Shown: piece by piece, positions 9,186-21,359 of the stretch | Layout: each line of letters starts with the position of its first letter | Numbering within the stretch: the stretch's first letter is position 1 | Source of the DNA: an uncultured virus (IMG/VR IMGVR_UViG_3300026413_000011) | Lineage: Duplodnaviria; Heunggongvirae; Uroviricota; Caudoviricetes | Strand: one strand, 5' to 3' | DNA length: 64,000 bases | IMG/VR virus record: IMGVR_UViG_3300026413_000011 | Location: 1 to 64,000 of that record | Program-made: the position numbers and the translations under genes | Notes under the pieces: generated by a model | Databases searched by the model: none | What the model was told of the DNA's origin: nothing | Seen by the model: the letters and a program-made list of their open reading frames with translations, nothing else

Positions 9186-9488
9186 ATGAAGTTGTCTGAA
9201 GTACCGTTCCCGTTGTTGTCGACCGAAGAAAATTGGGTGACTAGATTGCACGGTAAGAAAGGAACAATCGAAAAGATTTCCGTACGTGCATATGGTCGCC
9301 AATTCGAAATGTCTTTGCACATTGTCTGGGAAGACGGCAGTACATCGAATCCGGTATTCCCTGATGAGTGCGTACACGTGACAGCGAAGGACCCTAATCC
9401 GATTTCACTGGATCCATGGGTTAATCACCAAATAAAGTTGCTCGATAAACATCGAGATAACTTCGAATCTCATCGCAGAGCGTTGTAA
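9186..9488 (+). CDS. Hypothetical protein
   Basis: AAGGAG SD. Confidence 0.75.
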   Translation: MKLSEVPFPLLSTEENWVTRLHGKKGTIEKISVRAYGRQFEMSLHIVWEDGSTSNPVFPDECVHVTAKDPNPISLDPWVNHQIKLLDKHRDNFESHRRAL

Positions 9489-9497
9489 CGATATAAT

Positions 9498-9522
9498 GGC
9501 TCTCCTTCGGGAGAGCCTTATG
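9498..9522 (+). terminator. Hairpin terminator
   Basis: GGCTCTCC-TTCG-GGAGAGCC then TTATG. Confidence 0.8.
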
Positions 9523-9556
9523 CCGTATTTTCTTTTATTTAAAACTATCAAAGCCC

Positions 9557-18028: not shown

Positions 18029-20149
18029 TTATCTCATCCATCCAGGGACTCGGTTGGCTGTGTATTTAGGTACTTCGAATTCTTTTTGGTCTACGGTTAG
18101 ATCGTAGGCTTCCATTGATTTCTGTAGTACCGCATAGAACATCTTGTTTTCATCAAACTCTTTTGGTTGGTTAGCCAGGTAGGATTCAAATGCTTCCTTC
18201 TGTTCGAATGGAGATTTGACGCCAGTGATCTCTTCAACCATTGCTTGAGACCAAGCCAAGATGTCAGCCGAACGGGTCGAGATGTTAGGTACGTCACCAG
18301 TATCCAACACAGCGGTGTAAACCACACACTGAGAATCCTGACCAATACGCCAGATACGGGCAATAGCCTGTTCTAGGATATAGCTACGGAATGGCGAGTT
18401 CAGAATCAACATGGTGTCAGCCATGGTTAGGCGCACAGCAGTTGCAAGGGACGCGTAAGTAGCGAGTAGCGGGTTCAGCTTAGGATCTTTATCGAAACGA
18501 CCTACAATCGAAGACAGCTCGTTAGACGTTTTGCCGTAGACAGCAATTGGAGTCATACCGAGTTTACGGGTATGGGAATCCGAGGCTTCTAGTGCTTCCA
18601 CGAACGAAGTAAACATGATCGTCTTCTTCTGAGTGGATTCCACGATACCAACCCAGTCAACATGTGGAACCATAGCTACGTGACATTCAATACGCTTACC
18701 ACCCAGGATACGTCCGAGGGTTTCACCTTGGATCTTCAGCATCACGTATTTGATAGCCGACTTAACATCACGGAACTCATGAATCATCGACTGTGGTAAC
18801 GATGGACCGAACACGAGCTTCTCGTATTTGTTAGTAGCCTTGATCTCTTCACCCGTGAATCGTGGATCTGGGTTAGCGATAACGATCTTCAGTACACGAC
18901 GATATTCGTTATAAGCAGCAGTCTGTTCTTTTGTACGGAGGGTAGCTTCGTGTAACCGTAAGCATTCGGCCCAGTATTTCTCATCCTGTGGTTTCCGATC
19001 TTTGTAGTACTTGACACGCTCTTTAATGAACGCTTCCATCACTACCTTAATAGCCGGGAGTGTGAAGTCGTTACCATTCGGGATCTGGATCTTGTAGGGT
19101 TTGTTGATCGGTGGTTTGAGACCAGTGTCTTTCTCAGTCTTAGCGATGAAGAATGACATGAAGCCCATTCGATGTCGGATAATGTCCAGACCCTTACCAC
19201 CTTCTTTCCCGTAGATCAACCGGAACCTAGCTTCCACTTCAGGAGTGAACAATGGATCGGATACAGTCATCAACGTGATCAATTCAGCACCCAGTGCTTT
19301 AACTGGAGTACCAGAAGCCAAGATGTTGTCTTGTGAGCCTAGGGCCTTAACGCACGCGATATAGAGCTGCGTTTGCATGGACTTAGGGTCGTTCATGTTG
19401 TGACATTCATCAAGCGCAGTGAAGATCTTCTGGCCTTTAAACACACCGGTCTGTACTAGGTCGAGGAAGTTCGATAGCCATTGATAGTGAACAATGATAA
19501 TCCGCTCACCATTGTAAGGTCTGCCCATTGCTGAGGACCACACAGTTTGCTTCTGATGGTACATCTCATCCATCGAGGCTTCCCACACAACTTCAACTGC
19601 TCGTTTCTCACAGAAGAATACCATCTTGTCAGCACCGAGCATCTCACCGATAGCTGTACACATGTAGGTCTTGCCAGTACCAGGTTCCGCGTGTAGCAGA
19701 TCGCCCACAAGGTTCCATTGATCCAGTCGAGTATTGTACGACTGGAAGTATTCCATCTGTGGTTGCTTAGCCGAGAACTTCAGGTTGTTTAGTTTGGAGA
19801 AGTCCAGGCGACCTACCGCGTTAGGCTCAGGTTTAGCAAACGCTTTACCAACCCATGTAGATGTCAGCATTGCTTCACGGATAGCAGCTGCCGTTCGTAC
19901 CGAGATGAATCGGGAACGGTAGTTCATCACGCTGTTGAGGATGTACAAGAAGTCAGGAGCAAAGAACTTATAGAACCGAAGTTCTGTAGATGAAGCGTGG
20001 TTGAAGATGTTGGCCGCAATACGTGAAGTCTTCCAATACTTGGAAATGTCCCGAACGAGATGATTCCCGTTTACACCGGAGAGGATGATTTCGTTGCCTT
20101 GTTCTTTAGCAACTACGACGCCCATCAAACGTCGGAAATAGCTTTGCAT
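18029..20149 (-). CDS. SF2 (SNF2/DExH-like) helicase
   Basis: Walker A PGTGKT, DECH, SGTP, QAIARIWRIGQ. Confidence 0.9.
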   Translation of the reverse strand: MQSYFRRLMGVVVAKEQGNEIILSGVNGNHLVRDISKYWKTSRIAANIFNHASSTELRFYKFFAPDFLYILNSVMNYRSRFISVRTAAAIREAMLTSTWVGKAFAKPEPNAVGRLDFSKLNNLKFSAKQPQMEYFQSYNTRLDQWNLVGDLLHAEPGTGKTYMCTAIGEMLGADKMVFFCEKRAVEVVWEASMDEMYHQKQTVWSSAMGRPYNGERIIIVHYQWLSNFLDLVQTGVFKGQKIFTALDECHNMNDPKSMQTQLYIACVKALGSQDNILASGTPVKALGAELITLMTVSDPLFTPEVEARFRLIYGKEGGKGLDIIRHRMGFMSFFIAKTEKDTGLKPPINKPYKIQIPNGNDFTLPAIKVVMEAFIKERVKYYKDRKPQDEKYWAECLRLHEATLRTKEQTAAYNEYRRVLKIVIANPDPRFTGEEIKATNKYEKLVFGPSLPQSMIHEFRDVKSAIKYVMLKIQGETLGRILGGKRIECHVAMVPHVDWVGIVESTQKKTIMFTSFVEALEASDSHTRKLGMTPIAVYGKTSNELSSIVGRFDKDPKLNPLLATYASLATAVRLTMADTMLILNSPFRSYILEQAIARIWRIGQDSQCVVYTAVLDTGDVPNISTRSADILAWSQAMVEEITGVKSPFEQKEAFESYLANQPKEFDENKMFYAVLQKSMEAYDLTVDQKEFEVPKYTANRVPGWMR

Positions 20150-20220
20150 GGTTGAGCCCTTGTTCTTTATTAGAAGTCATAAGATTAGCCCCGATCAGAA
20201 ATAAAATACTTTATGCATGA

Positions 20221-20380
20221 TAGTATAGACGAGGCCCGCGCTTAAGCGCAGTCCATGAGGAGGTGATCCAGCCTAGTTGCACCCATGAGCGTGACCATTA
20301 TTGCTGAGAAGCAACGAATGCTCATACACGTACCTTGTCTATTAGAGCCTGACCTCTGGTGGTTACCTTCGGGTAACCAT
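20221..20380 (+). ncRNA. Candidate structured small RNA displaying a 16-nt complement of the 16S rRNA 3' end
   Basis: Closing stem 20225-20234/20333-20342; hairpins GCGC-TTAA-GCGC and ATGAGC..TTGCT-GAGA-AGCAA..GCTCAT; AGGAGGTGATCCAGCC at 20258-20273; own terminator. Confidence 0.6.
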
Positions 20381-20384
20381 TATG
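20360..20384 (+). terminator. Hairpin terminator
   Basis: TGGTTACC-TTCG-GGTAACCA then TTATG; no convincing + strand CDS upstream, implying a non-coding transcript. Confidence 0.75.
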
Positions 20385-20407
20385 TCGTTTCTAAGAAATC
20401 TCAAATC

Positions 20408-20422
20408 TATATTACGTTATTG
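20408..20422 (+). promoter_or_regulatory. phiKZ-type early promoter
   Basis: AAATCTCAAATC-TATATTAC-N5-TG. Confidence 0.8.
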
Positions 20423-20443
20423 CATTCCAACTGGAGTTTTTAA

Positions 20444-20938
20444 ATGTCTCAAGAGTTACAGCCTATTCCACGCATGTCGCTGAAAACAGCTGACGGCAAA
20501 AACATTCCCGTCATGGCACAAGTTGGTTGCGGTACAGTTGAGTTCAGCGTCGATGTTGACAACGATGCGCAATACCCAGCATTCCCTCGCCAGTTCTTCT
20601 CGATCCAGTCGATCACCACGCTGACGTATCTGGACGTGCACAAAGCTTTCACTGATGAAGACACGTTCCATGCACTGCAAGCATGTGAAGCGATCTTCGG
20701 TTCTGGTCAACGTCGATACGGTAATGTGGATGATCCGAATCCAGAAAGCGACAAAGTCTTCAAAGGTATCTCGATCTCGTTGGCTGGTATGATTCCAGCT
20801 GACCAGATGATGGCATTGTATATTTTCGCTCAAGATGCAGGCCACATGATGCTACCGAAAATGCAAGTCAGTAGCGAAGGCAACACCTACACCATCTTCA
20901 CGCTGATCCCTAACTACGAGGCACTGTGTGGAGCGTAA
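20444..20938 (+). CDS. Hypothetical early protein
   Basis: GGAG SD after an early promoter. Confidence 0.8.
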   Translation: MSQELQPIPRMSLKTADGKNIPVMAQVGCGTVEFSVDVDNDAQYPAFPRQFFSIQSITTLTYLDVHKAFTDEDTFHALQACEAIFGSGQRRYGNVDDPNPESDKVFKGISISLAGMIPADQMMALYIFAQDAGHMMLPKMQVSSEGNTYTIFTLIPNYEALCGA

Positions 20939-21359
20939 CCCTACCCTCAAGAAGATCCCACTAGAAACCCGTGTTGATCTCATTCGTGAAGCTGCTGCTT
21001 ATGCGAATAAAGAATACATGGATCGCTGCTGGATTGAGAAAGATGAGGATGGTTTCACGGGATGGCGTTGGGACAAGTATAAGTCCACCCGTGTGATCGT
21101 CTGTGCTGCTAATCGCTACGGCGATTTCATTGTCACCGGTAGTCGTCACTATTCTGTATCGATGACGATGACTATCAAACTCGTAGGCATGGACGCATTG
21201 CGTGCTTACGCTGGTAACGAATATGATCAAGGCTTCATCGATCAGTTCGGTACGTACTACACCCGTAAAGAAGCATGGGATCTGTGCGCTGCACAAGGGC
21301 GCAAACTATTACCTGATGGAGGTCCTGACGGAACTCTGTTCTCGGAGCATCTGTACTGA
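20928..21359 (+). CDS. Conserved phage hypothetical protein
   Basis: CAA..GxRH, QGFIDQFG.Y.TRKEA and LFSExLY motifs resembling a family seen in many phages. Confidence 0.75.
   Translation: MERNPTLKKIPLETRVDLIREAAAYANKEYMDRCWIEKDEDGFTGWRWDKYKSTRVIVCAANRYGDFIVTGSRHYSVSMTMTIKLVGMDALRAYAGNEYDQGFIDQFGTYYTRKEAWDLCAAQGRKLLPDGGPDGTLFSEHLY

Follow-up and report, generated by a model that had tools for sequence, protein, structure and literature searches.

The 64,000-nt stretch of uncultured-virus DNA analysed here (the window) contains a unit whose reading as a small RNA (sRNA) is strongly supported, and the best-conserved part of this sRNA, a formally unpaired strand, is complementary to the 3' tail of the host 16S rRNA. 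The sRNA is transcribed by the phage non-virion RNA polymerase from a middle-type promoter and ended by a phiKZ-type terminator as a discrete middle-class transcript, as shown for the unit itself or in its homologues. Judging from comparative sequence evidence, the phage probably uses an RNA to take hold of the small ribosomal subunit, and we lean towards a trans-acting, start-less 'super Shine-Dalgarno' RNA that would dock on the 16S tail.

Phage takeover of host translation is known almost only through proteins, a recent example being the ribosome-binding protein gp014 of phiKZ (PMC10914614). The RNA described here is conserved and abundant-looking in the best-studied nucleus-forming phages (phiKZ, 201phi2-1 and PhiPA3), and it is annotated in none of the phage records examined. 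The phiKZ/PAO1 pair is a direct test system, for which gradient sequencing, antisense knock-down and phage editing exist.

The transcription unit and its ends

The element lies in a 294-nt divergent gap between an SNF2-type helicase gene (18029-20149, - strand; a DNA helicase by PHROG) and a + strand gene starting at 20444. The features of the gap are listed below.

20203-20228, + strand: phiKZ middle-type promoter, AAAATAC (20203-20209), 14 nt, then TATAG (20224-20228), with the predicted start at A20227
20227-20386, + strand: non-coding sRNA of about 160 nt, its 3' end placed by homology with the 201phi2-1 termination site 229201, inside TTATGYC
20227-20234, + strand: 5' strand of the closing stem P1, AGACGAGG, partner of 20333-20340
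20238-20249, + strand: hairpin P2, GCGC-UUAA-GCGC, with 2 of 4 pairs changing on both sides
20256-20273, + strand: 16S-tail complement UGAGGAGGUGAUCCAGCC, the strand between P2 and P3, 18 nt against 16S 1525-1542 with one G-U
20285-20325, + strand: compound hairpin P3 with a GAGA (GNRA) loop, its arms being ATGAGC (20285-20290) with GCTCAT (20320-20325) and TTGCT-GAGA-AGCAA (20301-20314); 6 of 7 inner-helix pairs change on both sides in the 7-sequence alignment (A4)
20333-20340, + strand: 3' strand of P1, CCUUGUCU, with CCTTG invariant in 12 of 12 aligned sequences
20343-20358, + strand: short hairpin or linker UAGAG-CCUGAC-CUCUG of the minimum-energy fold, with the anti-SD-like ACCUCU inside
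20361-20388, + strand: phiKZ-type intrinsic terminator GGUUACC-UUCG-GGUAACC, then A and UUAUGUCGU, with 7 of 8 stem pairs covarying
20408-20415: early-type promoter motif TATATTAC, between the sRNA terminator and the next gene

Every feature described in the initial annotation was found in the window sequence where it had been placed, including an end stem of ATAGACGAGG (20225-20234) with CCTTGTCTAT (20333-20342). The 10 bp given for this stem hold for the DNA; in the RNA only 8 bp are left, because the transcript starts at A20227.

The 30 phiKZ 'middle promoter' rows compared, of 33 in all, read AAATAC-N13/14-TATG with the start at the last base (PMC10914365 supplement), and the promoter of the element, AAAATAC-N14-TATAG, fits this pattern. 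Its TAC-N14/16-TATAG was kept in all 15 homologues described below (as TATG in Noxifer). This middle-type sequence is the real signal, and the late-promoter-like TATG at 20212-20215 that had been pointed out earlier was not conserved. At the other end of the unit, GGTTACC-TTCG-GGTAACC-A-TTATGTCGT, whose UUCG hairpin occupies 20361-20378, is a canonical copy of the phiKZ terminator motif, which PMC10914365 gives as a stem-loop and then TTAT, in the form ...YTTATKYYGT. The early-type promoter motif TATATTAC, conserved in the window's subgroup and in phiKZ, separates the terminator from the next gene, and the sRNA is therefore its own transcription unit.

Published transcript ends were compared with the homologous units. 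The 201phi2-1 start site P047 at 229019, typed 'middle promoter' (PMC11512511), is the fourth base of the TATAG of the homologue. The 201phi2-1 termination site T089 lies at 229201 with an efficiency of 0.998, and the transcription unit TU063, of 182 nt, is typed 'sRNA' (PMC11512511). For phiKZ, an orphan + strand 3' end, T095 at 213001 (PMC10914365 supplement), falls within the element.

Four RNA runs, all of them assembled contigs, were compared with a phiKZ-identical IMG/VR locus (L126). In the nanopore cDNA run X13, 5' adapters were found at L126 551 (3 records), again the fourth base of TATAG and on the motif strand, and a poly(A) junction at L126 402 is the same position as T095; this run is possibly the published ONT set, and so perhaps not independent of it. 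A further adapter junction at L126 596, the helicase start, coincides with the published helicase late promoter P107 at 212808 (PMC10914365 supplement), which indicates that the reading of ends from this run is sound. Contig depth in X13 reached 7611 over the RNA versus 20 and 138 alongside, although such depth is a hint only. The Illumina run X11 gave a separate 210-nt contig covering L126 365-574; the uncovered positions 346-364 and 575-656 are uninformative, because the runs consist of assembled contigs. With its own promoter and terminator in the window, and with transcripts in 201phi2-1 and in a phiKZ-type run, the discrete non-coding + strand small RNA first proposed from the window alone was strongly supported.

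Homologues, prior reports and fold

The gap was 78-93% identical to the same gap in the Pseudomonas phages D6, RVTF4 and Psa21. By eye, the element was also present in phiKZ, between PHIKZ203 and PHIKZ204, and in PS119XW, and in PhiPA3 the whole unit was inverted as a block relative to the helicase gene. A search with a strict pattern found the element in 9 IMG/VR contigs of 267-317 kb, one of which equals the window across the 320-nt stretch compared.

A covariance model (R1) was then made from 12 distinct sequences, the window and 11 relatives. R1 matched the window with 157.4 bits (E 1e-31, 20224-20388), 201phi2-1 with 96.4 bits (E 2.8e-18, 229016-229203) and Phabio with E 2e-12; the match to Noxifer was weak (E 0.16), and the element there was clear by eye. 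In all, 15 distinct homologues from at least 8 genera were collected, all from nucleus-forming jumbo phages of Pseudomonas hosts and including phiKZ, PhiPA3, 201phi2-1, Phabio, Noxifer and Psa21. The neighbouring helicase proteins of the window and phiKZ were only 53% identical. At E <= 1, R1 found no match in any of seven other phages (EL, OBP, Erwinia Ea35-70, Ralstonia RP12, E. coli Goslar, Serratia Moabite and Vibrio Yong XC32).

By sequence and structure homology under R1, the window unit belongs with sRNA006 of 201phi2-1, the product of TU063, whose middle promoter is likewise TAC-N14-TATAG and whose terminator is of the same type. The 201phi2-1 paper lists sRNA006 only as a '5'UTR derived' sRNA of a hypothetical gene, and its column for similarity to sRNAs previously identified is empty for this entry (PMC11512511). 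The text of the same paper does not contain 'Shine-Dalgarno', and '16S' occurs in it only in host taxonomy (PMC11512511). The sRNA is already in print only as these supplementary rows for sRNA006 and as the orphan 3' end T095 of phiKZ. Neither its conservation nor its 16S complementarity was found in the accessible literature on 201phi2-1, on phiKZ (ONT, dRNA-seq and Grad-seq), on gp014 or in the 2025-2026 jumbo-phage reviews, nor by full-text searches of that literature.

The predicted fold is a junction closed by P1 and carrying P2 and P3, with the linker and the terminator beyond it. In the 7-sequence alignment, 10 of 37 pairs changed on both sides, while shuffled alignments gave 3.7 +/- 1.3 such pairs (none of 500 reached 10) and slid controls gave 0-3. 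In the 14-sequence alignment the same was true of 10 of 19 pairs, and again none of 500 shuffles reached 10, although this alignment leans to structure because it was fitted to the model. The conservation and covariation looked for across phiKZ-like phages were thus found, in 15 homologues with covarying stems. Conservation of the hairpin or linker at 20343-20358 was limited to the window's subgroup and, in part, to phiKZ. A search of Rfam, which had been suggested earlier, gave no family on the element, and the two matches elsewhere in 19500-21000 were at chance level.

The two strands fold about equally well in silico. One P1 pair varied between G-U (5 of 14 sequences) and A-U (the others), and this exchange is possible only in an RNA of the + strand, which agrees with the earlier remark that a G-U pair in the end stem favours that strand.

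Complementarity to the host 16S tail

The 16-nt stretch AGGAGGTGATCCAGCC at 20258-20273 occurs once in the window, even when up to 3 mismatches are allowed. After it, the longest stretch that exactly complements the 16S tail measured 10 nt, with both strands of the window considered. In front of the ORFs with 120 or more codons (123 ORFs), the maximal 16S complement was 3-8 nt.

The host 16S tail was taken from genomes. A Pseudomonas 16S primer led to 80 loci, 69 of which reached the 16S 3' end; GGCTGGATCACCTCCTT was present in 69 of these 69, and ...CTGCGGCTGGATCACCTCCTTA followed by ATCGA was read in 54 of them, including P. viridiflava, P. avellanae, P. putida and P. fluorescens. The 16-nt complement announced from the window sequence was confirmed against these tails. 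On the genome-read tail, U20256 and G20257 extend AGGAGGTGATCCAGCC, and the pairing therefore runs to the final 16S nucleotide (18 nt, one G-U). With runs anchored on GGTGATCCA and 16S positions numbered as in E. coli by analogy, contiguous pairing with the 16S tail was found in 15 of 15 homologues and was 14-21 nt long, as follows for the main groups.

Window group: 18 nt, 16S 1525-1542
Psa21 group: 19 nt, 16S 1523-1541
phiKZ: 21 nt, 16S 1522-1542
Noxifer: 16 nt
201phi2-1: 17 nt, motif GAGGGGGTGATCCAGCC
Phabio: 14 nt, 16S 1528-1541

All substitutions within these runs in the 15 homologues were transitions that preserve pairing by G-U wobble. The variable columns are A/G facing U1537 and U1541, and C/U facing G1526 and, in Noxifer, G1525. 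The motif thus proved to be conserved beyond the window's subgroup. The 12-mer GGRGGTGATCCA occurred once per genome, within the sRNA, in 201phi2-1, Noxifer and Phabio. Among the seven phages without an R1 match, six had no copy of it and Ea35-70 had one, apparently in coding sequence. The known hosts are all Pseudomonas and share one 16S tail, with which each of the variants CCAGCC, CCAGUC and CCAGUU can pair; tracking of the motif with host 16S variants is therefore non-discriminating.

The duplex with the 16S tail was predicted at -27 to -36 kcal/mol, and at about -21 kcal/mol with 1530-1542 alone, while the predicted cost of opening the motif was 3.6-7.7 kcal/mol. In the predicted folds the motif was only partly open, with a mean unpaired probability of 0.29-0.57.

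Viral contigs were also scanned for the 15-mer on its own, which gave at least 117 loci. Among the matches listed, many were evidently coding (peptide E-E-V-I-Q), and only 17 of 117 had a start codon opening an ORF at Shine-Dalgarno (SD) distance. As a control, 80 unrelated viral 15-mer loci were compared with R1, and none matched the whole model. The bare motif is therefore not diagnostic.

Proposed action on the 30S subunit and competing explanations

In the mechanism towards which we lean, the P2-P3 junction strand UGAGGAGGUGAUCCAGCC would act as a start-less 'super Shine-Dalgarno'. Once in the cytoplasm, it would base-pair with the free host 16S tail (1530-1542), and the pairing could continue along the 3' strand of helix 45 as far as 1525, or 1522 in phiKZ. 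The sRNA would dock in this way on 30S subunits and occupy the anti-Shine-Dalgarno. Docking is proposed because the comparative evidence suggests that selection acts on pairing with the 16S tail. Its outcome may be competition with mRNA at initiation or protection of the 16S 3' end from nucleases; docking might also anchor and stabilise the sRNA together with whatever its hairpins bind, or deliver something bound to them.

Blocking of the 16S 3' end by synthetic oligomers stops SD-dependent initiation. Oligonucleotides and PNAs against this end reportedly inhibited initiation in the hands of Taniguchi and Weissmann (1978), Jayaraman (1981) and Good and Nielsen (1998). These man-made molecules have the same target sequence as the phage sRNA, and we know of no natural phage counterpart of them. 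If the sRNA binds, it would be a natural counterpart of initiation-blocking antisense oligomers and a new class of viral ribosome effector.

Several known systems resemble the sRNA in part. The STAB-SD of Bacillus thuringiensis cry3A is likewise an SD-like sequence without a start codon that can pair with the 16S 3' end and seats a 30S subunit (PMC4113751). This short SD belongs to the 5' UTR of an mRNA in a Gram-positive host, where it blocks the 5'-3' exonuclease RNase J1 (PMC4113751). The phage complement, by contrast, is 14-21 nt long and is part of a structured sRNA with its own terminator, and the phage host, to our knowledge, lacks RNase J. Two small non-coding RNAs, SprF1 (Staphylococcus aureus) and Val-tRF (Haloferax), bind the small subunit or the ribosome, in the case of SprF1 by a purine-rich stretch, and they compete with mRNA during initiation (PMC8938821, accessible sections). 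Both are cellular and stress-induced, and a long perfect 16S 3' complement is not reported for them in those sections, whereas the phage sRNA is viral and its binding predicted. Extended SD-anti-SD helices in S. aureus involve the same 16S tail, with two extra pairs that serve start-codon placement (PMC13009471); unlike these, the pairing of the phage sRNA is 14-21 nt, start-less and directed into helix 45.

We hold more tentatively that the phage RNA might clamp the 16S 3' end and invade the base of helix 45, so that phiKZ-like phages would employ RNA in place of protein to withdraw 30S subunits from SD-dependent initiation, to re-programme them, or to seal their 3' ends against host nucleases. 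A global block of the anti-SD would also hit the phage, whose own genes apparently rely on normal SD sites, 3-8 nt in length. The helix-45 part of the pairing is dispensable in Phabio, since the run there is only 14 nt (1528-1541).

Further points count against docking, among them the only partial opening of the motif in the predicted folds. Pairing past G1530 would need the base of helix 45 to be opened in the mature 30S subunit, and the sRNA was missing from 7 of 7 relatives classed as on other hosts. As jumbo-phage reviews describe, the phage nucleus is the site of middle transcription in these phages, and the sRNA would therefore have to be exported to meet ribosomes. The phiKZ Grad-seq study flagged two different ncRNAs instead of the sRNA described here.

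The motif could instead serve another partner, a phage or host protein or an RNA with an anti-SD-like sequence (for example sequestered ribosome-binding sites that are freed or blocked), and the match to 16S would then be mimicry. We regard this as unlikely, though worth keeping in view. Two conserved parts of the RNA have no explanation in the 16S model: the hairpin loops of GNRA type, and CUACG(G), a stretch that precedes P1 in 10 of 15 homologues and is absent in the window and RVTF4. Action on mRNAs is, moreover, usual for phage sRNAs. CUACG(G) is itself a complement of the helix 45 5' strand (16S 1509-1514), but this pairing is unproven because CUACG(G) variants do not keep it. Against another RNA partner, 10-mers identical to the tail outside the element numbered 2 versus 1.6 expected in the window, the mRNA targets sought in the window gave matches at chance level, and no second copy of the 16-mer was present there at up to 3 mismatches. 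A protein site would not predict that G-U pairing is kept at every substitution, and 16S rRNA is presumably by far the commonest perfect partner in the cell.

It is quite improbable that the unit is a cis-acting leader which holds a 30S subunit at the 5' end of read-through transcripts, as a stabiliser or standby site for the genes from 20444, much as STAB-SD does, with the short RNA as a by-product of attenuation. The authors of the 201phi2-1 study class sRNA006 as '5'UTR derived' and list a read-through unit, TU064, into gp305 (PMC11512511); a + strand gene follows the unit in most homologues, and STAB-SD is an established precedent (PMC4113751). However, the terminator of 201phi2-1 works with an efficiency of 0.998, and the early-type promoter TATATTAC at 20408-20415 lies after the terminator and ahead of the next gene, so the downstream genes do not need a leader. 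In PhiPA3 the inverted unit faces the helicase gene, which has its own late promoter. The window element shares with STAB-SD the SD-like sequence with no start at SD distance; it is not in the 5' UTR of a stabilised mRNA, as the efficient terminator, the separate promoter and the PhiPA3 inversion indicate. Since transcription in these phages occurs in a nucleus that ribosomes do not enter, as the reviews describe, attenuation or antitermination that senses ribosomes is unlikely.

A functional - strand, as a copy or mimic of the 16S tail, or a DNA-level site in the divergent promoter region is very improbable. GGCTGGATCACCTCCT on that strand is identical to the 16S tail, and the about equal folding of both strands in silico is compatible with it. 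Yet the G-U pairs of P1 and elsewhere would become A-C, the promoter and terminator face the + direction, and the adapter and poly(A) ends as well as the published start and termination sites are all on the motif strand. The variants GGGGG and CCAGUC break anti-SD mimicry but keep + strand pairing, and the unit has moved as a block in PhiPA3. The G-U pattern, the orientation of the signals and the transcript ends together rule this reading out for practical purposes.

Hardly credible is a strong ribosome-binding site of a small ORF. One candidate is the 52-codon ORF at 20285-20443, which opens 21 nt past GGAGG (which ends at 20263, with the ATG at 20285) and is confined to the window, D6 and RVTF4; another is the mini-ORF that begins at 20255, ATG-AGG-AGG-TGA. 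However, no ORF is common to the 15 homologues, phiKZ has none of 25 codons or more, and Psa21 lacks the ATGs of 20255 and 20285. The 1-3 nt indels and compensatory stem changes suit an RNA and not a protein, and, as had been noted from the window, GGAGG has no start codon 4-13 nt downstream.

An internal partner that masks the motif was also considered. Within the window's subgroup, CUGG together with the 5' arm of the terminator is a possible partner of the motif, at -16 kcal/mol. Across the homologues the best internal partner reached -9 to -16 kcal/mol and differed from lineage to lineage, far weaker than the 16S duplex, and such a partner was rejected.

Promoter-type elements on either side of the sRNA and inversion of the unit in PhiPA3

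The divergent gap that holds the sRNA also carries two promoter-type elements, and the PhiPA3 locus holds the unit in reverse:

Window 20170-20192, - strand: helicase late promoter, AAGTCATAAGATTAGC, read on the helicase strand as GCTAATCTTATGACTT
Window 20406-20415: early-promoter-like motif TCTATATTAC, fitting the phiKZ early-promoter core TATATTAC
PhiPA3 locus L122, 1755-1935: sRNA unit, promoter through terminator, in opposite orientation relative to the helicase gene

AAGTCATAAGATTAGC showed no variation across the sRNA family. GCTAATCTTATGACTT constitutes the helicase late promoter, and the helicase transcription start site (TSS) was predicted at window 20178 (-) by homology to phiKZ P107, which is listed with TSS 212808 and type 'late promoter' (PMC10914365). 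The early-type motif TCTATATTAC lies 3' of the sRNA terminator, 29 nt ahead of the gene at 20444, and is kept in phiKZ and in the window's subgroup; the published phiKZ table has no TSS at its phiKZ counterpart. In PhiPA3 the sRNA unit points toward the helicase late promoter, and such inversion of the entire unit, from promoter to terminator, showed that it is mobile as a block.

3' ends in phiKZ and a predicted alternative pairing of the main motif

phiKZ seems to make two sRNA 3' ends. The upstream end follows the first hairpin, marked by the orphan + strand 3' end T095 (213001) and by poly(A) junctions at position 402 of the phiKZ-identical locus L126, giving an RNA of ~150 nt. The downstream end lies near the canonical terminator, ~37 nt beyond T095, and an Illumina contig extends to L126 ~365. 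These double ends may reflect processing or, alternatively, two-step termination. In the window's subgroup, main motif positions 20259-20271 are predicted to pair alternatively with 20355-20371 (CUGG plus the terminator 5' arm) at -16 kcal/mol, and this modelled pairing would be an antiterminator-like conformer; the CUGG/terminator-arm partner is not kept in the phiKZ subgroup.

A second 16S-complementary stretch

Homologues, immediately 5' of the P1 3' strand (window equivalent 20326-20332): conserved stretch CUACG(G)

CUACG(G), present in 10 of the 15 homologues, complements 16S 1509-1514, the helix 45 5' strand, which invasion of the 3' strand by the main motif would release. In the window and in RVTF4, however, ACACG stands at this place, and pairing is lost in the variants, so the match may be due to chance.

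Other loci resembling the motif or the terminator

The sRNA covariance model R1 also gave two weak matches, both ending in a terminator of the sRNA's type:

Window 9362-9526 (E 0.004): GGCTCTCC-TTCG-GGAGAGCC-TTATGCCGT
G000 78401-78579 (E 0.001): GCCTACC-TTCG-GGTAGGC-TTTATGTTGT

Both were rejected as sRNA copies and represent additional phiKZ-type terminators. Separately, GAGGAGGTGATCCAGCATCT is common to at least eight otherwise distinct IMG/VR viral contigs (L007, L008, L011, L032, L042, L063, L091 and L102), where it stands without a start codon at SD distance; they may form a further start-less 16S-tail complement family, or else share a coding motif.
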